Made by a program: the position numbers and the translations under genes
Notes under the pieces: model-generated
What the model was told of the DNA's origin: nothing
Database searches by the model: none
What the model saw: the letters and a program-made list of their open reading frames with translations, nothing else
Shown here: positions 3,590-21,017 of the stretch, piece by piece
Layout of the letters: each line of letters starts with the position of its first letter
Numbering within the stretch: the first letter of the stretch is position 1
Source of the DNA: an uncultured Gammaproteobacteria bacterium
GTDB taxonomy: Bacteria > Patescibacteriota > Microgenomatia > Daviesbacterales > UBA10151
Direction: 5' to 3'
Assembly (NCBI GenBank): GCA_964360965.1
Contig: CAYHYM010000003.1
Location: 1-32,000 of the forward strand
DNA length: 32,000 nt

Positions 3590-3633
3590 ACACCCTTGGG
3601 GTGTATTCGTATTGACACCTGCGGATATTTGAG
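3590..3633 (+). repeat. left 44-nt repeat (ACACCC-ttg-GGGTGT hairpin followed by TTGACA)
   Basis: acacccttggggtgtattcgtattgacacctgcggatatttgag. TTGACA, then 17 nt, then TATGCT lies just upstream of the transposase ATG, so it is a possible promoter. Confidence 0.75.
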
Positions 3634-3648
3634 ATATGCTAGGCTCAA

Positions 3649-4293
3649 ATGCCTTCCAGAATTTTCCCCTTTGTAAATGGGCAGTATTACCACATCTATA
3701 ATAGGGGTGTAGAAAAAAGAACTATCTTTGAAAAAAGCTGGGACTACTCAAGACTTAAAAAGACAATGCAGTATTATCAGCTTCTCGGCCCTAAGCCAAG
3801 GCTATCTAAATTCCTATTAGGCTCAATTCTCAAGCCAGATACCAATAAGAAGATCGTGGACATTATTTGCTACTGTTTAATGCCAAATCATTTTCACTTT
3901 CTTATAAAACAGTTAAAAGAGGGTGGAATTACAGAATTTGTTAGTAAATTAAGTAACAGTTATACCAAATATTACAATGTAAAATATAAACGGGTTGGAC
4001 CCTTACTACAGGGAGAATTTAAAGCTGTATTAGTAGAATCTGATGAACAATTGCTACATGTTTCTCGCTATATTCATTTGAACCCGATTGCTTCTTTTTT
4101 GGTAAAAGACTTAAATCTCTATGAATGGTCTTCTTATAAAGAATATACTAATAACCATAAAGGTATTTGTAATACGGAAGAAATTATGGGCTTTTTTAAA
4201 GATAGCTCCTCTTATCAAAAATTTTGTTTGGACCAAGTTGAATATGCCCAAAAACTGGAACTAATTAAGCATCAATTATTGGAAGAAGAATAA
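3649..4293 (+). CDS. HUH-family Y1 transposase, IS200-like / REP-associated tyrosine transposase (RAYT)-like
   Basis: 214 aa. HUH motif in CYCLMPNHFHFLIK and catalytic-Tyr region SRYIHLNPI, the typical Y1_Tnp/RAYT signature. Confidence 0.75.
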   Translation: MPSRIFPFVNGQYYHIYNRGVEKRTIFEKSWDYSRLKKTMQYYQLLGPKPRLSKFLLGSILKPDTNKKIVDIICYCLMPNHFHFLIKQLKEGGITEFVSKLSNSYTKYYNVKYKRVGPLLQGEFKAVLVESDEQLLHVSRYIHLNPIASFLVKDLNLYEWSSYKEYTNNHKGICNTEEIMGFFKDSSSYQKFCLDQVEYAQKLELIKHQLLEEE

Positions 4294-4294
4294 T

Positions 4295-4338
4295 ACACCC
4301 TTGGGGTGTATTTGTATTGACACCTGCGGATTTTTGAG
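4295..4338 (+). repeat. right 44-nt repeat (same hairpin, same orientation)
   Basis: acacccttggggtgtatttgtattgacacctgcggatttttgag, starting 2 nt after the transposase stop. 42 of 44 positions are identical to the left copy. Confidence 0.75.
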
Positions 4339-4371: not shown

Positions 4372-4935
4372 CTATTTAATCAAATTACTAAAGCAGAGCG
4401 GGCATAAAAACTTCCTATAGATATTTGATTTAGCCATAGTAGCACCTGGATGCATTACACACTTCGGATCTCTGCAGTGAGCACCCTGATCAAATATAGA
4501 CTTGGCATAGTCATCAAAATGATCCTGATTTTTAACTGCCCAATGACCTACTTCATGAACAGTTAAGTTCTTTATCCTACGTTCGTATTCTTTTTTGCTA
4601 ACTCTTAGAACAGAACTGTCTTCTCCTTTTAATCCGCGCAGTCTGGCCAATGAAATTATCACACTTTTTGTTTTAGGACTTGAAACCCCATAACAAAAAT
4701 CCTCTACTGATTTAGGATAAGCAGATAAGATTTGGTTGCCAGTTACATATACGGTATTAACAACTTTTGCTGGAAAATTAACCCGATAAATTCCAAACTC
4801 CTCATCGAACTCTAAAAAATCCTGATGCTCTTTTTTTCTTACAGATACTTTATATCCGAATATCTTTTTAATTATATCAGCGACTATTAAACCTTCTTTT
4901 CTAATATACGGGTCATAATCAACTGATAATTTCAC
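4372..4935 (-). CDS. archaemetzincin-like zinc metallopeptidase (M54-like)
   Basis: 187 aa. HEVGH, then ...AHC-RDPK-C-V-M-x16-CPLC, which matches the archaemetzincin signature HExxH...C-x4-C-x-M-x17-CxxC apart from a longer linker after HExxH. The start lies 18 nt downstream of nrdJ on the same strand. Confidence 0.6.
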   Translation of the reverse strand: MKLSVDYDPYIRKEGLIVADIIKKIFGYKVSVRKKEHQDFLEFDEEFGIYRVNFPAKVVNTVYVTGNQILSAYPKSVEDFCYGVSSPKTKSVIISLARLRGLKGEDSSVLRVSKKEYERRIKNLTVHEVGHWAVKNQDHFDDYAKSIFDQGAHCRDPKCVMHPGATMAKSNIYRKFLCPLCFSNLIK

Positions 4936-4953
4936 AACTTGAGTATACCAGAC

Positions 4954-7539
4954 TTAACACTTACTATATCCACAGGAGTAGCAGGTTTGGCAGCCTTCTT
5001 CCAGCACAAAAGAAGCAGTACCACACTCTGGACACAAATCCGCAGTGGCAGAAATATGCATCTGTCCCAAGGGCATCTTTTCTCCTCCATTACTCTGAGT
5101 TAAGTCTAGGGGTACTTGTTCTGGTGTTTGAGAACTACCATTTAAAGCTAAATCTTCTGCTAAAGCCTTAGCTATAGCATCAGCTAAACTCATCACTCTA
5201 TCTTTACCAAACCCAATTTGAGATGATCCACCAATTCCCTTTAGTTGAGAAACTACCTTTACTGCAATTTCTTTTGAATTTGGCCTAGAGATCCTTAAAG
5301 CCAAAGAGACCAACCTACCAATAGCTTCTGCATCAGCTGATGTATGCATACCAGCCTTACCTATTGTCACAAACACCTCAAACGGGTGATCTTCGCTATC
5401 GCGATTGATTGTAACAAAGGCCTCTCCAACCGGAGTCATCATTTTATAAGTTCTGCCTCTTAAGATTACTGGTCGCTCACCCATAGTATCAGCGCTATTT
5501 GTTTCTGTCTTAATTTCTCCGTTAGTAAGAGTTCCAGTTGAAAAATTAGTCCCTACGGCCAGCTGATCATAATAAGAATTATCTTTTTTAACCTCCAAGA
5601 CCTGCTTTTCCCGGGATCCATCCCGATAAATGGTAATTCCTTTACAGCCTGTTTCATAAACCATCATATAGGCTCTTCGGACATCTTCTACGGTTGCTTC
5701 ATGGGCAAAATTAATGGTTTTAGAGATGGCATTATCCACATGTTTTTGAAAAGCAGCCTGCATTTTAACATGTTCCTCAGGCAAAATATCATGAGCCACC
5801 ACAAATACCTGCTGCCATTTTTCCGGCACCTCACTCAAGCCTTGGACTGATCCGTAATTTTGCTCAATCTTCTCCATCAGTTGTTCCGAATAAAAACCTT
5901 CTGCCTGAGCTATTTGCAAAAATATCGGGTTAGTATTAAAAAGCCTTTTCCCTTCAATGGTATTTTTGGCGAAAGACAGACCAAAATACGGTTCAATTCC
6001 GGATGAGGCATCAGCCAGCATGGAGATGGTACCGGTTGGGGCTATGGTGGTCACAGCCCCGTTTCTAATTTTTAGGTTTTGTCCTAAAAAGTAGGGGCTT
6101 TTGGGATCAAAAATTGATCCACTCCAGGCCGGGAAAACTCCTCTTTCCCTGGCCAGATCTAAGCTTGCTATCTTGGCTGCCTTTTGAATACAGTCCATTA
6201 TATCCTCTGCCACCTGTAAACCCTTATCTGTGTTATAACCCACCCCCAGCTTAAACAGGGCATCGGCAAATCCCATCACCCCCAAACCTATTCTTCTAAT
6301 ATTTCTGGTTGTTTGGGCAATTTCTTCTACCGGGTAATTATTCATATCCAAAACATTGTCCAAAAAGTGAACTGACTGCCTGGTTACCTCTTCCAAACCC
6401 GCATAATCAATCTGGCCATCTGTGACAAACTTACCCACATTGATAGACCCCAAGGTACAAGCATCATACGGTAACAGGGGCTGTTCCCCACAGGGATTAG
6501 TAGCCTCAATCATGCCAATTTGAGGAGTGGGGTTGGCCCCTGATTTATTAATCCGATCAATCATAATCATACCTGGATCACCATAGTGCCAGGCCAGCTG
6601 GGTGATAAGCAAAAATACCTTTTTGGCATTTAATCTACCAGTCACCTGACCGGTTCTGGGATTAATTAACTCATATCCTTCATCCTTATGCCTCGCCCGG
6701 ACCAGATCATATAATTTGGCCACCCCATCCTCTACCTTTTTTAGCTTCAAATCAATATCACGGATGGCTTGAGCAGCCTTTATTTCCTTCACAATCTCTT
6801 CCCAATCCGGCTCACTTAAAACGTATCTGCTATCCTTTTTCACCTGTTCCATCCACTCCTCAGTGACAGTGACCGAGATATTAAAATTAGTCAGGGAAAA
6901 TTCATCTACCTTCATCACTGCAAAACGCAAAATATCCGGATGAGTAATATATAAAATACCCATATTGGCGCCGCGCCTGACCCCTCCCTGTTTAATCTGA
7001 GAAGTCACATCATTATAAGCTTGCAAAAATGAACATGGCCCCACTGTTTTACCGCCAGAGGAAGAAATCACATCTCCAAAAGGACGCAGTCTGGAGAAAG
7101 AAAATCCAGTGCCGCCGCCGGATTTGTGAATCATTACCATATCCACCATGGTTTTGGCAATTGATTTCATATCATCTTCAATAGGCAGCACAAAACAGGC
7201 GGACAGCTGCTGCATTCTCTTACCTGCATTAAGCATGGTGGGGGTGTTGGGAACAAACTGCTGACAGGACATGATTTTATAAAACTGTCTGGCTAAATCT
7301 GTAACTTCTTTTTTACCTTCACCATAAAACAGATCAGCTGATGCAATGTTATAGGCCACTCTCCAAAACATCTCTTTGGCATCCTCAACTGGCTCGCCTT
7401 TTTCATCGCGAAAAGCGTAACGGGTTCTGCCAACATATAAAGCATTTTCAGAAAGCTCAGGCTCCGTCAAATCTAGCGGTGCAGTGGGAATTTGTTGGCC
7501 AATTTTCCAGACATCTGCTAATTTATATTTCTTTTTCAT
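4954..7539 (-). CDS. nrdJ: adenosylcobalamin-dependent (class II) ribonucleotide reductase
   Basis: 861 aa. RNR barrel motifs (NPCGEQPL, TIAPTGT), no ATP-cone, and a C-terminal CxxC...CxxC tail (CPECG...CQTCYSCG). It overlaps nrdR by 4 nt. Confidence 0.9.
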   Translation of the reverse strand: MKKKYKLADVWKIGQQIPTAPLDLTEPELSENALYVGRTRYAFRDEKGEPVEDAKEMFWRVAYNIASADLFYGEGKKEVTDLARQFYKIMSCQQFVPNTPTMLNAGKRMQQLSACFVLPIEDDMKSIAKTMVDMVMIHKSGGGTGFSFSRLRPFGDVISSSGGKTVGPCSFLQAYNDVTSQIKQGGVRRGANMGILYITHPDILRFAVMKVDEFSLTNFNISVTVTEEWMEQVKKDSRYVLSEPDWEEIVKEIKAAQAIRDIDLKLKKVEDGVAKLYDLVRARHKDEGYELINPRTGQVTGRLNAKKVFLLITQLAWHYGDPGMIMIDRINKSGANPTPQIGMIEATNPCGEQPLLPYDACTLGSINVGKFVTDGQIDYAGLEEVTRQSVHFLDNVLDMNNYPVEEIAQTTRNIRRIGLGVMGFADALFKLGVGYNTDKGLQVAEDIMDCIQKAAKIASLDLARERGVFPAWSGSIFDPKSPYFLGQNLKIRNGAVTTIAPTGTISMLADASSGIEPYFGLSFAKNTIEGKRLFNTNPIFLQIAQAEGFYSEQLMEKIEQNYGSVQGLSEVPEKWQQVFVVAHDILPEEHVKMQAAFQKHVDNAISKTINFAHEATVEDVRRAYMMVYETGCKGITIYRDGSREKQVLEVKKDNSYYDQLAVGTNFSTGTLTNGEIKTETNSADTMGERPVILRGRTYKMMTPVGEAFVTINRDSEDHPFEVFVTIGKAGMHTSADAEAIGRLVSLALRISRPNSKEIAVKVVSQLKGIGGSSQIGFGKDRVMSLADAIAKALAEDLALNGSSQTPEQVPLDLTQSNGGEKMPLGQMHISATADLCPECGTASFVLEEGCQTCYSCGYSKC

Positions 7540-8070: not shown

Positions 8071-10962
8071 GTGAAATTGCTGCCCCTTTTAATTTTTCTA
8101 TTCACTTTTATTACGCTTCCCTCCCCAATCTATGCTGTCACCATTGCTGAGCAAACCCAAAACTTTGGAAATCAGCTAAATGTCTGGCAGGCAATTCAAG
8201 AGCTGGGCAGCTTGCTTGATGGCAAGGCCGGTTCCTTTACTTTCAGGGTACGTACCACTAAGACCAACCTTGAAATGTTTGATTATACTGCTCAAAATAC
8301 CAAGATTTATGATAAGGACACAAACACCAAAGTTGCCAACGGCTGCCACACAGGTTCTGCCTCTGATCCTTTGGGTGGCTTGACCTTTACCACAGCCGGG
8401 GTACCTGTTGGTTTTGAAGACGTGACAATTGATTTTTCATCCTGTAACTCTTACTCCTTCACTCAAGGACATAAATATTTAATTATTATAAGTAATGCCA
8501 ATATGGCACAATTTGGTGGAAGTTTAATCTATTTTGCAGCCGCTGCTTACGGGTCAAGCAGCACTGACCATTTTAATGGTGGGGGTTTAAGGTATGCTTT
8601 TGATAATAAATTTTGCAACCCAATCACTTACCAATGGAATTCTTCAATAAGTAATGCAAATGAAGACCAATGTAATATTTGGACCACACCCAAAGATGAC
8701 CTTTATTTTATTTTAGCCAACACCTCCCCTCCTCCCAAAACCCCGGTTATTTTTATACCCGGGATAGGGGGGTCTGAATTTAAAGCAGGGCAGGATATTA
8801 TCTGGGCAGATCAGGATGATGGACATGGAGGAAAGTTTTCTCATGCTTATACATCTGGGGAGAAAATTTGGGTCAATGAGGGTAAGGCGGCCGAACTGGG
8901 GGAGGATGATTATTTTGATGTATTAAGATTAAAATCTGATGGAGTAACTTCTGAGGCTTCTCTAAGTTTAACAGGAGATCTGACTTCTTTTGGTTATGGG
9001 GATATTGATTCATTTTTTACCGGATTGGGGTATGAGAAAGGTAAAAATTTCTTTGTTTTTCCCTATGATTGGAGAAAGGATGTGAGAGTTACCAAAGATA
9101 GTTTGGATGCCTTAATTGAGGAGGCAAAAACCAAATCAGGACAAACTAAGGTTAATCTAGTGGCCCATTCCATGGGAGGCTTGGTAGCCAGATATTATAT
9201 TGCTGATTCAGGGAGAGCTTCTAAGGTTAATAAGCTAATTTCTATGGGAGTTCCCCATTTGGGAGCAACAAAAGCTTTGAAAACCCTAATGTATGGAGAT
9301 GAAATAAAGAAGGATGTATTTGGTATATTTGCACTAGGAATCCCATCAAGTGAGGTCAAAGACGTATTCCAAAATCTCCCCAGCGCATTCCAGCTTTTAC
9401 CTTCCAAAAAATTTTATGATTTCTATGACAACTCTGCTCAGAAACCTTTCCCGTTTAGCGACGAAAGAGATATTGACAGTAACAAAGTTACTGGAGCACT
9501 AAACTTTATTCAAATCAAAGGATTGCTGGAAAATTTAATACACAATATGACAGTATTTGACTTTGGAGAACAACTTCATAATTTAGCTGATCCATTACTT
9601 AATCAATCTTCAACAGTCAAGTTGTATAACATAGCTGGTACCAGCCAACCTACTTTAGGACAAATCAGGGAAACGTGGTTAATACAGTGGCCTATTAATT
9701 TAATCTCTATAAGAGACGAGGTCTTTATTAACGGAGACAATACAGTGCCGCTCTATAGTGCCTCACTTAAAAGTGATTCTTTAGATTTTTCAGGCAGTGC
9801 AACTATTTATTATGTGGAACAAAAACACAGTGATCTGGTTTCAAAAGATGGCACAGCTATGCAAACAGTAAAGTCTATTTTAGAAGAATCTGATTTACCT
9901 GTTGAGGTTAAATCCGAAAAGATTGATTTGGAAGGACAGCATGTGTCTTTGGATGATGGGGAATTGGAATTGTATGATGATGAAGGAAAACATACTGGCA
10001 TAAAAGATGACGGAGAAATTGAAACCAATATTCCTGAAACTTTTTATTCAACATCAGGTAAAACTAAACATGCTTTTGTTAAAAAGAAAGCTAAAAAAGT
10101 GAAAGTGAGGGCTACTCGAAAAAAGAAAACCTCATCAGATCCCAAAACAACCAATCTAAAAATTAGAAGTTATAAACAGGATAAGGTTTCTAAAACCACA
10201 ATTTATAGAGATGTCTTAATTGCTGAAACAGCCAAAGTTGAATTTGATCTGGATCCAGCAATTGATACTTCTCCAACCCTTGCATTATTTCCTGATTCCA
10301 CCAAATCTGACAGCACAAATATTAATCTCACTAGTGAGGTATCAGGTGGTCCTGCCTTAGACCAAACATCACCTTCTACAAAGATAGAACTATCAGGAAG
10401 TAAAGATTCATTAGGCAAGTTTATATCCTCTGCCACAGTAACCTTAAGTTCCTCTGATTCTGAATCGGGAATTTTAAAAACAGAATATAGTTTGGATAAT
10501 GGTAAGACTGTTCAAACGTACAGTAATCCATTCACTGTCTCAACTCCTGGTAAAACTACTTTACAGGTAAAGTCTATTGATAAATTAGGTAATGAGGAAA
10601 TACCACAAGAAAAGGTCATAGAGATTGCTTCATCAACTTCTAGCTCATCTTCTTCCAGCTCATCTGGCAATAACTCATCAAGCACTGCACAATCCACCTC
10701 TGAGGAGTCCGTTCCGGTCACCTCCGAGGTGTTACGAAGTGACTCCTCGGAGGTGGATAGCACAAGCTCATCACAAGATATCCTGGGACTTAGCACCCAA
10801 AATCCAGTTTCATCTGCTCAATTAAAACCTCTAACTAACAACCAACCTAATCTACTAACAAGCAGTATGTTGATCTTAACAATGTTTATGGCCCAAAGCG
10901 GAATAATTCTTTTGTCATCCTTAAGATCAGTTCTTTCTTTTCTTAAACCAACCCCAAAATAG
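8071..10962 (+). CDS. secreted, C-terminally anchored LCAT/PGAP1-like alpha/beta-hydrolase (lipase/acyltransferase) with Ig-like and Ser-rich regions
   Basis: 963 aa with a GTG start. Signal peptide MKLLPLLIFLFTFITLPSPIYA. PVIFIPGIGGSEF oxyanion region, nucleophile elbow AHSMGG, and later NGDNTVP and KHSD (putative Asp and His). A poly-Ser tract and a terminal hydrophobic helix follow. Confidence 0.7.
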   Translation: MKLLPLLIFLFTFITLPSPIYAVTIAEQTQNFGNQLNVWQAIQELGSLLDGKAGSFTFRVRTTKTNLEMFDYTAQNTKIYDKDTNTKVANGCHTGSASDPLGGLTFTTAGVPVGFEDVTIDFSSCNSYSFTQGHKYLIIISNANMAQFGGSLIYFAAAAYGSSSTDHFNGGGLRYAFDNKFCNPITYQWNSSISNANEDQCNIWTTPKDDLYFILANTSPPPKTPVIFIPGIGGSEFKAGQDIIWADQDDGHGGKFSHAYTSGEKIWVNEGKAAELGEDDYFDVLRLKSDGVTSEASLSLTGDLTSFGYGDIDSFFTGLGYEKGKNFFVFPYDWRKDVRVTKDSLDALIEEAKTKSGQTKVNLVAHSMGGLVARYYIADSGRASKVNKLISMGVPHLGATKALKTLMYGDEIKKDVFGIFALGIPSSEVKDVFQNLPSAFQLLPSKKFYDFYDNSAQKPFPFSDERDIDSNKVTGALNFIQIKGLLENLIHNMTVFDFGEQLHNLADPLLNQSSTVKLYNIAGTSQPTLGQIRETWLIQWPINLISIRDEVFINGDNTVPLYSASLKSDSLDFSGSATIYYVEQKHSDLVSKDGTAMQTVKSILEESDLPVEVKSEKIDLEGQHVSLDDGELELYDDEGKHTGIKDDGEIETNIPETFYSTSGKTKHAFVKKKAKKVKVRATRKKKTSSDPKTTNLKIRSYKQDKVSKTTIYRDVLIAETAKVEFDLDPAIDTSPTLALFPDSTKSDSTNINLTSEVSGGPALDQTSPSTKIELSGSKDSLGKFISSATVTLSSSDSESGILKTEYSLDNGKTVQTYSNPFTVSTPGKTTLQVKSIDKLGNEEIPQEKVIEIASSTSSSSSSSSSGNNSSSTAQSTSEESVPVTSEVLRSDSSEVDSTSSSQDILGLSTQNPVSSAQLKPLTNNQPNLLTSSMLILTMFMAQSGIILLSSLRSVLSFLKPTPK

Positions 10963-14585: not shown

Positions 14586-17189
14586 GTGGAAAAGGCATAT
14601 ACAAAAACCGCTGAGCAAGTTATTAAAGATCTAAAAACTGATCTTAAAGACGGGCTGACATCAGCCCAAGCCCAAAAAAGATTAGCACAATATGGCCCAA
14701 ATGTCTTAAAAGAAGAGATCGGTAAAAATCCTTTGCTGATTTTATTTTCCCAGTTCAGAAGCTTTTTGGTGATTATTTTAATAGTTGCCTCCATCATCTC
14801 ATATCTGTTGGGTCATAGCCTTGACGCCTTGATGATTTTGGCCATTGTCGCAATTAATGCTGTCTTAGGCTTTATTCAAGAATATCGGGCAGAGGAATCC
14901 ATCAAACATCTGAAAAAACTGGTCACTGCCAATGTCCAGGTGATCAGAGATGGCCGGTTAGTAGAGATTCCCCACTTTCAACTGGTACCAGGAGATTTGG
15001 TAATTGTAAGTGACGGCCAAAAAGTCCCGGCTGATTTAAGAGTAACACAATCCATCTATCTGCACCTTAATGAAGCACCACTGACCGGAGAATCAATTCC
15101 TGTCACCAAAGTAACAGACAGCTTACCCCCCAACACCAACATAGCTGATCAAAAAAATATGCTTTTTGCAGGCACCTCAGTCTCTTCTGGCAAGGGTATG
15201 GGGATAGTTGTATCAACAGCTATGAAAACAGAAATTGGCCAAATTGCCCATCTGGTATCACAAGAGGTGGAACCAGAAACCCCCCTCAAACAAAAGCTGG
15301 ATCGTTTGGGCAAACTTTTGGGCAGAATTGTTTTAATCGTCGCCTCCTTAATTGCCCTGGAACAAATAATATTGGGTGAACCAGTTATTGAAGCTCTCAT
15401 CTCATCAGTGGCCTTGGCAGTAGCAGCCATACCAGAAGGCTTGCCTGCCATTGTCACCATCTCTTTGGCTTTGGGCACCAAAAGGCTTCTTAAACAACGT
15501 GCCTTAATCAGAAATTTGCCTGCCTCAGAAACCTTAGGATCAACAGAGGTAATATGTGTAGACAAAACTGGCACCCTAACAGAAGGAGAAATGTCTGTGA
15601 GAGAGATTTACGGCGCAAATATTCAAAAAATTCTCACTGTGGGGATACTTTCAAGCAATGCCAGAAAAAATAAAGACAGAATTATTGGAGATGCCACTGA
15701 GGCAGCTTTAATACAAAAGGCCATAGATTCAGGACTGGATCAGGATCAATTGGATAAAAAATTTCCTCGAGTACAAGAAATACCCTTTTCTTCAGACAGA
15801 AAAATGATGACCACCATCTGCAAAGAGGATAATCAATACCGGGTGACCAGCAAAGGTGCAACCGAAGTCATCTTGGACAAATGTTCACATATTGAGGAGA
15901 ATGGCCAGGTTATACCATTAACTGAGGAGAAAAAAGAACAGATTTTAAAAGTTAATGACCAAATGGCCCAAGATGCCTTGAGGATTTTGGCTTTTGCCGA
16001 GAAGCGCATACACCTTGCAGGTGAAGAAAATGCAGTTACACCTGCGAGGTGGAAAGAAGAAGAGATAGAAAAAGATCTGATCTTTCTAGGCCTTCAGGGA
16101 ATGATGGATCCACCAAGGGAAGGTGTTAAAGAGGCTATTGAGGTTTGTCAAAGAAAAGCAGGAATTAAAGTAATAATGATCACCGGAGATCACCTGTTAA
16201 CTGCCCAATCCATTGCCAAAGAAATTGGTATCAAGGGGGAGAGCATCAGCGGTCAAGAGCTTGACAATCTTTCTGAAGAAGAATTTGTCAAAAAAGTTCA
16301 GGAAATTAACATCTATGCCAGGGTCAGCCCCACTCATAAAATTAGGATCATCAAGGCCCTAAAAGCCCGCGGTCATCAGGTGGCCATGACAGGTGATGGG
16401 GTCAATGATGCTCCGGCCTTAAAGGCTGCTGATACTGGGGTGGCCATGGGGGTTACGGGCACCGACGTGGCCAAAGATGCCTCAGATATAATTTTACTGG
16501 ATGATAATTTCACCACCATTGTGCAAGCCATAAAAGAAGGAAGGACAATTTTTGACAACATCAGAAAATTTGTTAATTACCTGTTATCTTCAAACATTAT
16601 GGAAATAATGGTGATATCTTTGGCTGTAATTTTGGGTGGGGGACATTTGCCGCTTTTACCTATTCATCTTTTATGGATCAATCTGGTCACTGATGGGCTG
16701 CCGGCCCTGGCTTTGGGAGTTGATCCGCCCAGAGCAGACATCATGAGTTTACCGCCCCAAAATTTTAGGCAGCAGATATTGGGTGGTAGATCTTTAGGGC
16801 CTTTAACTGCCGTCAGTGTACTTTTAACCATAGCTATCCTTGCTATTTTCTTTATCTATCAAAAAGATCCAATTTATGAACAAACCATGGTTTTTACATC
16901 CATTGTCTTTTATGAAATGTTAAGAATTATTGCCATAAGGTCTGAATATAAACTGCCGTTTTTCTCAAATAAATTCTTAATCCTTGCTATAGCTGGATCA
17001 TTAGCACTGCATCTTGTGATTCTTTATCTACCATTCTCTTTTGCAGGAGTAACATTGCAAGAATTATTTAAAGTTCAGCCGTTAAATCTTTTTGACTGGG
17101 TACTACTGCTTGGAATTGGCATCTTCCTTCTATTTATCATGAGAATCTTGGTCATTACACCTGTATTTAATTTTTTAAAAAAGCCTTGA
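14586..17189 (+). CDS. cation-transporting P-type ATPase, type II (Ca2+/PacL-like)
   Basis: 867 aa with a GTG start. N-terminal cation-ATPase domain (GLTSAQAQKRLAQYGPN), DKTGTLT, TGD, MTGDGVNDAPALK and 10-TM topology. Confidence 0.9.
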   Translation: MEKAYTKTAEQVIKDLKTDLKDGLTSAQAQKRLAQYGPNVLKEEIGKNPLLILFSQFRSFLVIILIVASIISYLLGHSLDALMILAIVAINAVLGFIQEYRAEESIKHLKKLVTANVQVIRDGRLVEIPHFQLVPGDLVIVSDGQKVPADLRVTQSIYLHLNEAPLTGESIPVTKVTDSLPPNTNIADQKNMLFAGTSVSSGKGMGIVVSTAMKTEIGQIAHLVSQEVEPETPLKQKLDRLGKLLGRIVLIVASLIALEQIILGEPVIEALISSVALAVAAIPEGLPAIVTISLALGTKRLLKQRALIRNLPASETLGSTEVICVDKTGTLTEGEMSVREIYGANIQKILTVGILSSNARKNKDRIIGDATEAALIQKAIDSGLDQDQLDKKFPRVQEIPFSSDRKMMTTICKEDNQYRVTSKGATEVILDKCSHIEENGQVIPLTEEKKEQILKVNDQMAQDALRILAFAEKRIHLAGEENAVTPARWKEEEIEKDLIFLGLQGMMDPPREGVKEAIEVCQRKAGIKVIMITGDHLLTAQSIAKEIGIKGESISGQELDNLSEEEFVKKVQEINIYARVSPTHKIRIIKALKARGHQVAMTGDGVNDAPALKAADTGVAMGVTGTDVAKDASDIILLDDNFTTIVQAIKEGRTIFDNIRKFVNYLLSSNIMEIMVISLAVILGGGHLPLLPIHLLWINLVTDGLPALALGVDPPRADIMSLPPQNFRQQILGGRSLGPLTAVSVLLTIAILAIFFIYQKDPIYEQTMVFTSIVFYEMLRIIAIRSEYKLPFFSNKFLILAIAGSLALHLVILYLPFSFAGVTLQELFKVQPLNLFDWVLLLGIGIFLLFIMRILVITPVFNFLKKP

Positions 17190-17582: not shown

Positions 17583-18140
17583 CTAAATCACTTTAGCCAC
17601 TGATGCAATCATTAAAATTCCCACAGAGTTTGAGATATAGGATATTAAAATAAATCTTGCCTCGGACATTTTGGAAATTCCCAAAAGGGATACTCCCAGC
17701 TCATCAGGCAGTGGCGAGGCAATTATAAATACACCTATTATGGGAAGAGTCCAAGCAATATATTTTGAATGAAGTAAAGCTTTTATATGCGATGTTTCTT
17801 GCTTGCCAAAAAGTATAGCCAACTCCTCTTGCAGACGACTCCTTACCAACTTAAAAACCAGATAGTCTCCCCAAACCGCTCCCACACCACCAATCAAAGC
17901 AATTGCCATGGGATGTAAATTTTGAGTCATGATGGCAATAACTACTGTTGAGATGGCCACAGTGAATGAGGAAACAAAAAGCATCCCGGCAATTAAAGCT
18001 CCAATATATTCCAAGGATCCTAACCCTAAAAGCCAGTTTTTAAAGGCTTCATTTTGTGCCAATATTATGGCCAATAGAATACTTATTAAAACAGCAGTCA
18101 AATACGGATATCTCCACTTTTTCCAGAAATTAGGCACCAT
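17583..18140 (-). CDS. integral membrane protein, possibly DedA/VTT-like
   Basis: 185 aa with 4-5 TM helices. GAVWGDYLVFKLVR and SPLPDELG resemble VTT/DedA motifs (weak). The start overlaps the upstream gene by 11 nt. Confidence 0.5.
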   Translation of the reverse strand: MVPNFWKKWRYPYLTAVLISILLAIILAQNEAFKNWLLGLGSLEYIGALIAGMLFVSSFTVAISTVVIAIMTQNLHPMAIALIGGVGAVWGDYLVFKLVRSRLQEELAILFGKQETSHIKALLHSKYIAWTLPIIGVFIIASPLPDELGVSLLGISKMSEARFILISYISNSVGILMIASVAKVI

Positions 18141-19185
18141 GGTGTGCCTCCGCAGCCGGGCTTTGTTTTTTCCGCTTCAATAAATAATTATATGCAGCCA
18201 AGGCAGCCCTTACCCCATCACCTGCAGAAATATTATTTTGTTTATAAGGATCATTGGTGACGTCCCCACAAGCAAAAACCCCGGGATGGGAGGTGGTGGC
18301 ATGTTGAAAATTCACCATGATTTGTCCATGGTCATCAATTTGTACCAAATCTTTAACCATCTCAGAGTTAGGAACTGAGCCTATTTCCACAAATATCCCG
18401 CCCACTTCCAAAGTCTTTTCTTCTGCACTTCCACTCCCGATGTGGGATTGAGCTGACACATCGGGAGTGTGTATTCGGTATTTGAGCCCGGTTACCAATG
18501 CTTCCCCCACCACTTCCACAGTTTGGGCATTAAGAATAATTTGTCTAAGTTTGGGGTTTTTCTTGATTTCCTCAATAGTTGCCGGATCAGCTCTTAAGAT
18601 CTCACCCCTCTCCATCAGGTAAATTTCTGATGCATAGGGAAAAAGGTCCTGTACTGCCTCGAGTCCGGCATTTCCTCCACCAACAACTGCCACCTTTTTA
18701 TCGCGAAAAAGGGGAGCATCGCATGTTGAGCAATATACCACACCCCTACCTTCAAACTTATCCTCCCCTGGAATGCCTAGTTTCCTACGTCTGGCACCTG
18801 AGGCCACAATGACGGTTTTCCCCTGATATACTTGTCCTGAGCCTGTCGAAGGATCTGTAGTCACCTCAAAATCACAGATCCTCCCAGCAGACACCTCGGA
18901 TGGTGTGGACTCAGTAGACCTGCATGCAACAGATTTTACCTTCACCACCTTTTCTGTTTTTATATCAACAATATCTGGATAAGCTCTAACATGAGCTTCC
19001 AGTTTTTTAGCTAAATTGAGTCCAGAAATATGTACCTCTCCTATCCAGTTTTGAATATCATCTGAGACAATTGACTGCCCGCCAAAAGATTCTGTAATAA
19101 GGAGAGTTTTCATCTGCTTTCTTGCCGCATAAACAGCAGCAGCACAAGCTGCAGGTCCTCCACCAATGATAATTACGTCATACAT
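18130..19185 (-). CDS. trxB: FAD-dependent pyridine nucleotide-disulfide oxidoreductase, thioredoxin reductase / AhpF C-terminal-like
   Basis: 351 aa. GGGPAACAAAVYAAR FAD motif, FGGQ...IQNWIG, redox CSTCDAPLF (AhpF-like CxxCDGPLF), VVGGGNAGLEA NAD motif and GVFACGDV. It carries two in-frame repeat insertions. Confidence 0.8.
   Translation of the reverse strand: MYDVIIIGGGPAACAAAVYAARKQMKTLLITESFGGQSIVSDDIQNWIGEVHISGLNLAKKLEAHVRAYPDIVDIKTEKVVKVKSVACRSTESTPSEVSAGRICDFEVTTDPSTGSGQVYQGKTVIVASGARRRKLGIPGEDKFEGRGVVYCSTCDAPLFRDKKVAVVGGGNAGLEAVQDLFPYASEIYLMERGEILRADPATIEEIKKNPKLRQIILNAQTVEVVGEALVTGLKYRIHTPDVSAQSHIGSGSAEEKTLEVGGIFVEIGSVPNSEMVKDLVQIDDHGQIMVNFQHATTSHPGVFACGDVTNDPYKQNNISAGDGVRAALAAYNYLLKRKKQSPAAEAHHGA
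18432..18469 (+). repeat. palindromic element, 13-bp perfect stem and 12-nt loop, intragenic (copy 1)
   Basis: cactcccgatgtg-ggattgagctga-cacatcgggagtg. The arms are identical to the copy at 20519-20556. Confidence 0.85.
18834..18854 (+). repeat. CTGAGC-N4-CGAAG element, intragenic
   Basis: gtc-CTGAGC-ctgt-CGAAG-gat. It is read in frame as PSTGSGQ. Confidence 0.65.
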
Positions 19186-19187
19186 AC

Positions 19188-20147
19188 TTATACCTTAACA
19201 GGAGTAAGTGGAGGTTGTCCAGATAAAACCGCAATTATATTTTTGGCTGCCAATTCTCCCATGGCTGAACGGGCTTCTATTGTTGCAGAAGCAATATGAG
19301 GAGTTAGAATCACATTTTCTAAATCCACCATACCAGCAGCCCATTTAGGTTCTGTTTCACCCACATCTAAAGCTGATCCGGCAATGACTTTATTTTTCAA
19401 GGCTTCGACAAGCTCAGCCTCATCAACCACAGGACCACGGGAAGTATTGACCAGATAGGCCGTGGATTTCATCATCTTCAGATGCTCGGCGTTAATTAAA
19501 TGTCTTGTAGAATCAAGTAGGGGGACGTGAATTGAAACCACATCTGATGTGGAAAGTAGTTCTTCAGGTGTTGCTTTAAAGACTGCTCCCACCTTAGTTT
19601 CAAAATCCGGATTTTGTTTAACATCGTAATAGATCACATTCATACCAAAACTTTTCCCAATCTCAGCCACCCTTGAACCAATCCTGCCGAGTCCTAAAAC
19701 CCCCAAGGTTTTATCTTTAAGTTCCATCCCCAACATGACTTCCGGACCAAACTGCGCAGACTCTGTAAGAGCCAATTTATGGGCTTCAACAACTCTTCTT
19801 GAGATTGCCATTATCAGTGCAAATGTATGTTCAGCAACAGCCTCTGTTAACACATCCGGGGTGTTGGTGACCACAATACTTCGCGACAAAAGGGCGGGGA
19901 GGTCTAAATTATCTGTACCTACAGCGTAATTGGCAACTATTTTTAAATTAGCCCCAGCAGCGTTAATAAACTCCTGATCCACCTTATCAGTCAACATGCT
20001 CAACACCCCATCTGCACCCTGTATAAAATTCAAAAGTTCCTGTCTTTCCAAAGGCCGATCATGTGGTGAAACCACCACTTCATACCCAGCATCCTGCAAC
20101 ATCTTTATCCCACTGCCGGGAATTTTTCTGGTAACTACAACTTTCAT
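19188..20147 (-). CDS. D-isomer-specific 2-hydroxyacid dehydrogenase (glyoxylate/hydroxypyruvate reductase-like)
   Basis: 319 aa. NAD fold GLGRIGSRVAE, catalytic region TPHIASAT, and a strong SD (GGAGGTGG) 6 nt upstream of the ATG. Confidence 0.8.
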   Translation of the reverse strand: MKVVVTRKIPGSGIKMLQDAGYEVVVSPHDRPLERQELLNFIQGADGVLSMLTDKVDQEFINAAGANLKIVANYAVGTDNLDLPALLSRSIVVTNTPDVLTEAVAEHTFALIMAISRRVVEAHKLALTESAQFGPEVMLGMELKDKTLGVLGLGRIGSRVAEIGKSFGMNVIYYDVKQNPDFETKVGAVFKATPEELLSTSDVVSIHVPLLDSTRHLINAEHLKMMKSTAYLVNTSRGPVVDEAELVEALKNKVIAGSALDVGETEPKWAAGMVDLENVILTPHIASATIEARSAMGELAAKNIIAVLSGQPPLTPVKV

Positions 20148-20171
20148 CTTCTTCCACCTCCGAGGTGTTTT

Positions 20172-21017
20172 CTAATCCATCATAACAACTTCTGTTAAAA
20201 CTTTAAATCTTTCTGGTAAGGTTTTTGTTAAAAACTGTTGTTTTTCTTCCCCTTGCAAACTGCAAACCTCCTGCCACAGCGCCCTTCCTGCTAAAAAGCC
20301 TTTGGCCCCTGCTTTTATTGCAACTTTCAAATTTTCTTTAAAAACCTCAAAACTATCTCCTCCTGTAAGTAAAATCCATGGAGTATCACCTACCATATTG
20401 GTAATTTCCACGCATACATCCAAATCACCCGGATATTCCAACTTCCACACATCTGGAACTATCCTAACCTCCTTAAAAATTTTCACTGACTCGATCACCA
20501 ACCCTGCTTTAGTGGTCCCACTCCCGATGTGAGATTGAGTATGCACATCGGGAGTGTACGTGACAATTTCTAAAAAAAATGGGAAATCATGAATCTTACA
20601 ATCCTCTAAAACTTTCCTGGCAGTTTCCAGCTGTTTTTTTGCACTTTCTAAGTTTGGATTAAAATAAATCAAAAGTTTGGCCCCAGAAGCCCCCAGCTCT
20701 TTTAACTGCCCAACTATGTATTCCAACTCCGTAATTCTTTCTCCAGCCTGGTTAACGTATCCGCTTTTTTCTAAAGGTAATAAAAATGGTTTTGTTTGGC
20801 AAGCTTCTTTACATGCCTCTATGCCATAGTGTTCATCAATCAACAGTCCTGAAACTTGACCTGCTAAAGCATTGATAATTTCTGATTTCAGGGAAACAAC
20901 AGTCTCATCAGAAACACTATCAGCATCCTGTGGATTTATTAATTTCTTAAATGATCCCCTATGGTCCAAAGCCAACATCAAAAATTTGCCATCAGATGTA
21001 AACTTACTTAAATCCAT
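20172..21017 (-). CDS. class I aldolase of the LacD/YihT (tagatose-bisphosphate aldolase) family
   Basis: 281 aa. N-terminal FLMLALDHRGS motif and VWKLEYPG (putative Schiff-base Lys region). It carries the in-frame palindromic element. Confidence 0.65.
   Translation of the reverse strand: MDLSKFTSDGKFLMLALDHRGSFKKLINPQDADSVSDETVVSLKSEIINALAGQVSGLLIDEHYGIEACKEACQTKPFLLPLEKSGYVNQAGERITELEYIVGQLKELGASGAKLLIYFNPNLESAKKQLETARKVLEDCKIHDFPFFLEIVTYTPDVHTQSHIGSGTTKAGLVIESVKIFKEVRIVPDVWKLEYPGDLDVCVEITNMVGDTPWILLTGGDSFEVFKENLKVAIKAGAKGFLAGRALWQEVCSLQGEEKQQFLTKTLPERFKVLTEVVMMD
20519..20556 (+). repeat. palindromic element, 13-bp perfect stem and 12-nt loop, intragenic (copy 2)
   Basis: cactcccgatgtg-agattgagtatg-cacatcgggagtg. 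Confidence 0.85.

Follow-up and report, generated by a model that had tools for sequence, protein, structure and literature searches.

A 32,000-nucleotide stretch of contig CAYHYM010000003.1 (assembly GCA_964360965.1; this whole stretch is the window below) carries two copies of a perfect G+C-rich hairpin, each read in frame inside an unrelated protein-coding gene. The best-named homologues of the window genes come from Candidatus Daviesbacteria/Microgenomates, within the Candidate Phyla Radiation (CPR, or Patescibacteria), and gene order is conserved with contigs of that group. The hairpin is probably a miniature mobile element, similar in kind to repetitive extragenic palindromic (REP) sequences and Rickettsia palindromic elements (RPEs), that persists where its translation is tolerated. 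It measures about 38 bp, with arms of 13 bp (15 bp in the fullest copies) around a 12-nt loop, and exists in a long form with a 24-nt loop. The family is spread among the CPR, chiefly in Daviesbacteria/Microgenomates and also in Saccharibacteria. Numbers prefixed L or P are our own handles.

Two hairpins with identical arms in unrelated genes

The two host genes and the two hairpins are the following.
18130..19185, minus strand: host gene 1, a FAD/NAD(P)H disulfide reductase of 351 aa resembling thioredoxin reductase (TrxR) and the C-terminal part of AhpF, with a Pyr_redox_2 domain and a CSTC redox motif
18432..18469, minus strand: hairpin copy 1, subfamily A, arms CACTCCCGATGTG / CACATCGGGAGTG, sense-strand loop TCAGCTCAATCC; reductase residues T240-S251, TPDVSAQSHIGS
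20172..21017, minus strand: host gene 2, a class I aldolase of the DeoC/LacD family (DUF2090, tagatose-bisphosphate-aldolase-like), 281 aa
20519..20556, minus strand: hairpin copy 2, arms identical to those of copy 1, sense-strand loop CATACTCAATCT; aldolase residues T155-S166, TPDVHTQSHIGS

An earlier note, made by reading the letters of the window, had described two complementary 13-nt arms around a 12-nt loop between a flanking c and t, with a second copy at 20518-20557 and five differences between the copies. The plus strand bears this out in every detail. Positions 18431-18470 read c-CACTCCCGATGTG-ggattgagctga-CACATCGGGAGTG-t and positions 20518-20557 read c-CACTCCCGATGTG-agattgagtatg-CACATCGGGAGTG-t; in both copies the 13-bp arms are perfectly complementary, arms and loop come to 38 bases in all, and every one of the five differences lies in the loop. 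The copies lie 2.1 kb apart and share one reading frame, each in its own minus-strand open reading frame (ORF), where they encode the near-identical peptides HTPDVSAQSHIGSGS (reductase) and YTPDVHTQSHIGSGT (aldolase), about 12 extra residues each, just as the note had read them. Its description of the copies as GC-rich islands is also correct, with 62% G+C in the arms vs about 40% in the whole window (35-45% by 1-kb window).

When up to two mismatches were allowed on both strands, the 13-mer had 5 matches in the window vs 0.27 expected, a number reached by none of 100 dinucleotide shuffles. The fifth match, at 19851 (CACCCCGGATGTG, 2 mismatches), was set aside as chance; it is the conserved TNTPDV motif of a 2-hydroxyacid dehydrogenase. 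Transcripts of either strand are predicted to fold at -23 to -24.5 kcal/mol (z about -4). A terminator scan called neither copy as an intrinsic terminator, the loop being 12 nt long and a T-run being absent from both strands, and no Rfam covariance model matched at its gathering score anywhere in the window. The identical reductase gene with its insert is present in three records, namely a 66-kb NCBI record and two ENA assemblies made from replicate 0.1-um metagenomes of Hainich groundwater; the assemblies have a low coverage of 4-5x.

The reductase insert and its empty site

The reductase is closest to the C-terminal half of AhpF and to TrxR, proteins for which the note had named a much shorter connection at the place of the insert, and correctly so. 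Among the 120 best orthologues, 116 have a short beta-turn of 3-5 residues at the site (..GLKYK-DRKTG-EEKTLEVGGIFVEIG..), and the equivalent turn of E. coli AhpF (1fl2) is likewise short, RDRVSGD. The window protein reads KYR-IHTPDVSAQSHIGSGSA-EEK. Distant and close orthologues alike lack the peptide, and the closest relative (P0002/L040), which is 82% identical and has the same synteny and neighbouring gene, presents the empty site. A codon alignment of the window with L040 gives a net gain of 12 codons (36 nt) in the window. Judged by these alignments, the reductase segment is a lineage-specific insertion.

Within the NAD(P)H domain, the insert falls in the beta-hairpin turn that joins strands 231-239 and 254-259. 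In an AlphaFold model of the reductase (mean predicted local distance difference test score, pLDDT, of 84) residues 240-253 form a loop with a local pLDDT of about 61 vs 95-97 on either side, a low-confidence loop between two strands of the kind that the note had expected at the protein surface. The model thus predicts a surface beta-turn far from the CSTC redox centre, and the insert would share the surface exposure of RPE-encoded peptides. Elsewhere in the gene, a perfect 9-bp inverted repeat, AGGATCTGT-N15-ACAGATCCT at 18850-18882, lies where the reductase is conserved (GRICDFEVTTDP); since orthologues keep the peptide, the repeat is probably due to chance.

Constant arms and changing occupancy in the aldolase

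In the aldolase, the insert comes immediately after the conserved FFLEIVTY strand; the loop there varies in length, and many orthologues have just 3-5 residues at this place (e.g. YG-GEN-LV). Type A occupies this site in three species, those of the window, L003 (Daviesbacteria, CP066688) and L009. Between the three genes, identity is 67-74% in the flanks and 53-59% at the third positions of identical codons, while 24 of 24 arm nucleotides, including 8 of 8 synonymous positions, are the same in all three. The loop of the window copy is 50% identical to those of L003 and L009. Because the arms agree even at synonymous sites while loop and flanks differ, an explanation at the level of the protein is excluded. 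The identity of the arms would mean either a constraint on the stem sequence or young copies, produced by re-insertion or conversion.

On a rough tree of the aldolases, occupied and empty sites, types A, B and C (described below) and unrelated palindromes are interspersed. The nearest neighbour of the window protein is without the element, and one type-A protein has as its sister a protein of type C in which the insert is displaced by two codons. This interspersion of occupancy and type favours turnover. Presence, absence and type thus differ among relatives at the same sites, which is the indel polymorphism that the note had expected of a propagated element.

A family of copies in CPR genomes

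Copies were sought in two scans, one of a single genome per species and one of metagenomes, which gave about 13 non-redundant sites. The exact 13-bp arms, with related loops (core ..CTCAAT/ACAAT..), are present in six unrelated host genes with intact ORFs. Beyond the window, type A sites are as follows.
UvrC, GIY-YIG domain: L004, from the same groundwater sample as the window
RecJ, OB domain: L006, 11-nt loop
TsaD: L028/29/35, 24-nt loop, encoding YTPDVYAQVSPKSHIGS
PMT_2 glycosyltransferase: L002/17/23, in another reading frame, TLPMW..TSGV
Aldolase, same position as in the window: L003 (closed Daviesbacteria chromosome CP066688) and L009, two further species
Intergenic, 10 nt past a stop codon: L001/26/33, a Saccharibacteria metagenome-assembled genome

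The note had proposed a search for further copies, and they do occur, in at least five more host genes as well as between genes in other CPR genomes. Loops are homologous between sites (sense-strand examples TCAGCTCAATCC, CAGTTACAATTC and TATCTTCAAATC), the 24-nt loop being the 12-nt loop with 12 internal bases added. This homology indicates that whole elements, and not the arms alone, have been copied. The flanks of all copies follow (t/c)a-CACTCCC...GGGAGTG-(g/t)n, and the fullest copies have 15-bp arms, TACACTCCCGATGTG, giving 42 nt, a multiple of three. One reading frame (TPDV..HIGS) is common to four unrelated soluble proteins, a membrane protein (L002) uses a different frame of the same hairpin DNA, and in L001 and L042 this DNA is untranslated. 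All copies in the common frame also share one loop orientation; the reverse orientation often gives stop codons, and we therefore treated this bias as uninformative.

About half of the 34 metagenome matches with 11-bp arms were unrelated high-G+C hairpins with different flanks and loops, and these were excluded. A scan of viral contigs for subfamilies A, B and C found no copy and hence no evidence of a phage vector. Concatenated insert peptides returned no candidates from an index of 5.8 billion proteins, probably owing to its sparse word index. The neighbouring contigs reached by the proteins at the ends of the window added about 3 kb and no new copies. A general arm rule, 'CAC-N7-GTG', was discarded: it fits several arm types and is inseparable from coincidence, and CACCTCC/GGAGGTG is also a pair of anti-Shine-Dalgarno and Shine-Dalgarno sequences. 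Separately, hairpins with the core CTCCCGATGTG, loops of 4 or 9 nt and other outer bases were observed at L007 2880-2911, L013 9367-9398 and L005 1607-1645, outside long ORFs on contigs of 44-48% G+C; we do not claim that they are kin to the family.

Subfamilies, compensated changes and decay

Two further arm types can be derived from type A by changes on both sides of the stem. Subfamily B, with arms CACTCCCGGTGTG/CACACCGGGAGTG, forms the second TsaD copy of L028, 360 nt from the type-A copy, and is one compensated change away from A. Subfamily C, CAATCCCGGTTTG-N12-CAAACCGGGATTG, is intergenic between two convergent genes in L042 and is three compensated changes away from A; it also occurs in the aldolase of L048 with one stem mismatch. 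The protein alignments show these types as well. At the aldolase site, B appears as TPGV..HTGS and C as NPGL..QTGI, and at the reductase site B appears as TPGV..HTGG in P0007. Across 12 DNA copies, 98.7% of stem cells are paired and three pairs have changed on both sides. Neither the covariation score nor the number of double-sided cells in these 12 copies was reached by any of 500 shuffles, and structures slid along the sequence scored far lower.

Copies also decay. Besides the mismatched copy of L048, that of L049 (type B) has one mismatch and one G.U pair. In the L050 aldolase (1131-1979) a second, direct copy of the left arm stands where the right arm should be (TPDVQLQF-HSRCGS); the hairpin is thereby lost and the ORF kept. 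From its sequence this copy looks like the product of a template switch or rearrangement. The TsaD protein of L028 (7643-8845) is 400 aa long vs about 340 usual. It contains four or more additional segments, namely STSSGSTS, ARNDGVGV, the type-A element, and the type-B element with VPPSEV after it. One essential gene can thus accumulate several such inserts.

Insertion hot spots and other in-frame palindromes

The same protein loops are hit repeatedly by different palindromes. At the reductase turn, L041 carries a different perfect hairpin, CACCTTCCAGGTG-N20-CACCTGGAAGGTG, and P0007 and P0061 carry further inserts. A second reductase hot spot follows KSVAC, where 24 of the 120 orthologues have 6-19 extra residues, many of the TSEV/PSEV or TPGV type; the TSEV/PSEV-type peptides are encoded by CACCTCNGAGGTG palindromes, and L041 has a hairpin with a 9-bp stem there. 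The window contains this hot spot and two more palindromic regions.
18886-18915, minus strand: second reductase hot spot, STESTPSEV (..CCACACCATCCGAGGTG..)
16011..16051, plus strand: in-frame hairpin insert in a P-type ATPase gene (14586-17189), CACCTTGCAGGTG-N15-CACCTGCGAGGTG with one G.U pair, encoding IHLAGEENAVTPARW
10692..10758, plus strand: cluster of nested CACCTCNGAGG-type palindromes, in frame as TSEESVPVTSEVLRSDSSEV

The ATPase insert is absent from the orthologues in L043 and L044, and L042 has another insert at the same site (VIASEAKQS...PRDDG). The cluster at 10692-10758 lies in the Ser-rich, low-complexity C-terminal region of a 963-aa LCAT/lipase-like secreted protein. The window has four G+C-rich near-perfect hairpins vs 0.6 in shuffles, and four of its genes contain in-frame palindromic inserts. 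In-frame palindromes are a general trait of these genomes.

Peptides of the form VIASEAKQS...IASSS(T)PRND(A/G) were seen to recur in frame in the ATPases of L043 (12112-14748, minus strand) and L042, and in N-terminal extensions of P0007 and P0026-P0029. From their sequence they look like one more family of palindromic repeats, perhaps with kinship to CGTC-tagged REPs (GTCATTGCGAG...). In the P0007/P0026-P0029 extensions, QPDIGS could be encoded by the palindrome CCCGATATCGGG; the DNA of L041 uses other codons.

A RAYT-like transposase gene as candidate machinery

The window contains a gene of the class associated with REP sequences, a REP-associated tyrosine transposase (RAYT)-like gene, between two direct repeats.
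3590..3626, plus strand: upstream 37-nt repeat flanking the RAYT-like gene, with hairpin ACACCC-TTG-GGGTGT
3649..4293, plus strand: RAYT-like Y1 (HUH) tyrosine transposase gene, 214 aa; the HUH motif is HFH and the tyrosine lies in RYIHLNP
4295..4331, plus strand: downstream 37-nt repeat in direct orientation, beginning 2 nt after the stop codon

The protein scores 35.7 bits against Pfam Y1_Tnp (gathering cut-off 23), and its best NCBIfam match is REP_Tyr_transpos, with E = 1.3e-12 and a score below the family cut-off. It has no sequence match in the PDB. The segment 3590-4331 is a REPtron- or IS200-like unit in a CPR genome. Homologues 40% identical to the protein are encoded at L009 991-1450, about 0.5 kb from the aldolase element, and at L043 5544-6205, in the syntenic region. 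Both of these genes are flanked by GGGTCSGACCC palindromes, and the same palindrome also lies in frame at two conserved internal positions of these RAYT genes (..LGSDPL.., ..IGSDPL..). Its presence at the flanks and inside suggests that the transposase gene has itself been colonised by its cognate hairpin, and such arrangements point to hairpin-specific single-stranded DNA transposases, each with a cognate hairpin, in these genomes. The link between the RAYT-like gene of the window and the TPDV/HIGS element is circumstantial. A kinship between the foot of the element (TACACTCCC) and the flank hairpin of the RAYT-like gene (TACACCC) was considered and dropped, the match being too short to count.

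How the copies may arise and persist

Most likely, the element is a non-autonomous hairpin that would be copied or moved as single-stranded DNA by a trans-acting enzyme able to recognise hairpins; the best candidate class is the RAYT-like Y1 HUH transposase, of which the window encodes one. Selection would then filter the insertions. There is almost no intergenic space in these genomes, so that two kinds of copy would persist: those a short way downstream of genes, and those in frame at surface loops, in which the segment would be translated and tolerated as 12-17 added hydrophilic residues, (Y)TPDV-x4-HIGS(G/V). In soluble proteins just the hydrophilic frame (TPDV..HIGS) in surface loops would survive, and the hydrophobic frame would survive in a membrane protein (L002). 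Recent copying, conversion from other copies or quasi-palindrome correction could keep the arms complementary, and a copy could afterwards stay perfect, acquire a compensated change in both arms, decay, or be deleted.

Several observations weigh against a mobile element of this kind. Copy number appears low, with two copies in the 32-kb window and one exact copy in the complete 820-kb CP066688.1, a count that would miss diverged subfamily copies. Comparison of the flanks of copies found no target-site duplication or clear insertion boundary; a 38-nt element alone cannot yield the 36-nt net gain in the reductase, and of the boundaries considered, at 36, 38 or 42 nt, none could be fixed. In about 300 kb of related DNA no Y1 gene is flanked by the TPDV/HIGS hairpin, nor did a transposase of any other kind turn up with it at its flanks, and the flank hairpin of the window RAYT shares just the foot motif TACAC..CC with the element. 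The covariation is partly a matter of ascertainment, since several copies were found by searching for perfect hairpins. Finally, identical arms in three diverged aldolases do not fit neutral decay after one old insertion; they would require recent re-insertion, conversion or selection.

If selection on the stem were the answer, the hairpin would be a functional cis-element, acting as an mRNA hairpin (in stability, RNase III processing or ribosome transit), a DNA cruciform or a binding site for a conserved CPR protein, and the peptide would be a tolerated by-product. Such selection would account for arms that are invariant in the aldolases while the loop drifts, for the compensated changes between subfamilies, for a 13-mer that is identical in Saccharibacteria and Daviesbacteria, and for the stability of the predicted fold. 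We nevertheless consider it unlikely. The hosts (reductase, aldolase, UvrC, RecJ, TsaD and glycosyltransferase) have no common function or operon logic, most orthologues of every host are without the element, the closest relatives differ in occupancy and type, and copies with mismatches or a rearrangement persist although their genes are intact. Rfam gave no match, a terminator-like tail is absent, and quasi-palindrome correction or conversion can keep arms complementary in the absence of selection. In a further alternative there would be no dedicated transposition: ectopic gene conversion or illegitimate recombination would act between nearby copies, and template switching would make or perfect the palindromes. 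The clustering of copies in the window and in the L028 TsaD gene fits this proposal, as do the 7-mer CTCAATC, which is shared by the window loops and absent from the orthologous aldolase copies, and the duplicated left arm of L050. We regard it as quite improbable, because between different copies the flanks lack any homology on which recombination could act, the element is found in more than one phylum and on contigs without relation to each other, and template switching alone cannot give one 13-mer with related loops seven or more times over at unrelated sites.

Two remaining explanations seem hardly credible to us. If the peptide were an ancestral or convergent protein motif and the DNA palindrome incidental, the TPDV..HIGS frame in four unrelated soluble proteins would be expected; the motif is, however, absent from 116 of the 120 reductase orthologues and from most aldolase orthologues, the copies are identical in nucleotides including synonymous sites, L002 uses another frame, and the copies of L001 and L042 are untranslated. 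The bias towards one frame is explained by selection against the Cys-rich (HSRC..HREC) and hydrophobic frames. Because all data are metagenome assemblies and coverage is low, one might also suspect an artefact of assembly or sequencing, for example a chimeric fold-back or a hairpin derived from an adapter. We give this practically no weight, since the reductase gene and its insert recur in three records that were each assembled independently, the projects and sites that yielded related copies are unrelated and include a closed Daviesbacteria chromosome, and long ORFs are preserved in all copies.

Comparison with known palindromic elements

RPEs are about 100-150 bp long and encode 30-50 residues. 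The hairpin described here resembles RPE-1 to RPE-8 (Ogata et al. 2000 and 2002, as cited in PMC3733652) as a palindromic repeat in frame in unrelated housekeeping genes of a small-genome bacterium, with surface-loop peptides and hosts that are presumably functional, with coding and non-coding positions, and with patchy presence among orthologues. Like them, it is an in-frame palindrome in several unrelated genes whose ORFs stay intact. The note's idea of a propagated hairpin tolerated inside ORFs, on the model of the Rickettsia elements, is thus supported; the concept itself is not new (PMC3733652), and the copy number per genome appears low, lower than that of RPEs. The element differs from RPEs in its length (38-50 bp, 12-17 residues) and in its arms, which are perfect and far shorter. 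RPEs are not known outside Rickettsia, whereas this hairpin family occurs in CPR phyla. We therefore class the hairpin as an analogue of RPEs and not as a member, set apart by length and host phylum.

Short G+C-rich palindromic inserts of about 30-50 bp inside coding genes are also found in A+T-rich genomes as the mobile G+C clusters of yeast mitochondria (in frame in VAR1) and the 'byp' elements of Magnusiomyces. These are organellar and share no sequence relationship with the element. Translation skips byps by bypassing, whereas the copies described here keep an open frame and need no bypass.

REP/REPIN elements are associated with RAYT transposases (Bertels & Rainey 2011, PMC3116915), and in-frame intragenic GTAG- and CGTC-tagged REPs are known outside Rickettsia, often in uvr/repair genes (Di Nocera et al. 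2013, PMC3733652). A REP is a single G+C-rich hairpin of 20-40 bp, to be compared with 38 bp and a 13-bp perfect stem here. Further likenesses are copies that lie a little downstream of a gene or separate two convergent genes (L001, L042), in-frame copies in repair genes (UvrC and RecJ here, uvrA and uvrB in REPs), and RAYT-like Y1 genes with hairpin flanks in the same genomes. In contrast to REPs, which carry a tag at the hairpin foot (PMC3733652), no copy here has GTAG or CGTC next to the stem. The copies found are mostly intragenic, with just L001 and L042 intergenic, whereas REPs are typically extragenic and downstream of ORFs; there appear to be a few copies per genome vs tens to hundreds, and no REPIN-type doublets were seen among them. 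Unlike in a REP-RAYT unit (REPtron), no RAYT gene flanked by this hairpin was found in the about 300 kb of related DNA, the window RAYT being flanked by its own ACACCC-TTG-GGGTGT.

Bacterial MITEs (miniature transposable elements with inverted repeats; Correia/NEMIS, Nezha and RUP, reviewed in PMC10969869) are likewise non-autonomous, short, built on inverted repeats, mobilised in trans and occasionally in frame in ORFs. MITEs, however, are 70-300 bp long, with terminal inverted repeats around an internal region and defined target-site duplications (e.g. TA), whereas the element here is one single stem-loop whose flanks lack a consistent duplication. Full-text literature searches found no description of such elements in CPR/Patescibacteria; their coverage was incomplete, and this is absence of evidence only. 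The hairpins make up a family that is new, as is its host group, while the kind of element to which they belong is known.

Significance

CPR/Patescibacteria genomes are about 1 Mb in size and densely packed with genes, and they are usually said to hold few repeats and little mobile DNA. Four window genes with inserts, together with repeated independent loop insertions in orthologues, point to a steady source of protein-length variation in a section of bacterial diversity that is very large and uncultured. The interest lies in the wider pattern, that of recurrent in-frame hairpin insertion at protein-loop hot spots across the CPR with RAYT-like genes nearby, which extends the "protein-coding palindrome" phenomenon of Rickettsia to a radiation whose members are free-living or episymbiotic. 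In the RAYT-like genes and their hairpin flanks there is a concrete candidate mechanism that is open to testing. In practical terms, the inserts make proteins look more novel than they are, upset alignments and phylogenies, and could be used as strain markers.

A bolder proposal, which we put forward tentatively and would on balance not bet on, is that CPR bacteria such as the Daviesbacteria may carry an undescribed and diverse population of ultra-short (38-50 bp) hairpin elements, mainly in coding genes, that re-hit the same surface loops, diversify by compensated arm changes (A to B to C) and are serviced by RAYT-like HUH enzymes whose genes carry in-frame palindromes. Such a population would be a major source of lineage-specific insertions in CPR proteins. 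In a stronger version of the proposal, the stems would be kept by selection because the hairpin has a cellular role.

Observations beside the aldolase gene

Between the aldolase stop codon and the start of the 2-hydroxyacid dehydrogenase gene lies CACCTCCGAGGTG (20155-20167). On the minus strand this segment contains a Shine-Dalgarno sequence, GGAGGTG, 7 nt before the ATG and preceded by its own complement, the anti-Shine-Dalgarno-like CACCTC. In L049, a related Daviesbacteria-like contig, a bAvd gene stands beside a reverse transcriptase gene (RVT_1) at 4653-6015, 4 kb from the aldolase, an arrangement that is the signature of a diversity-generating retroelement.

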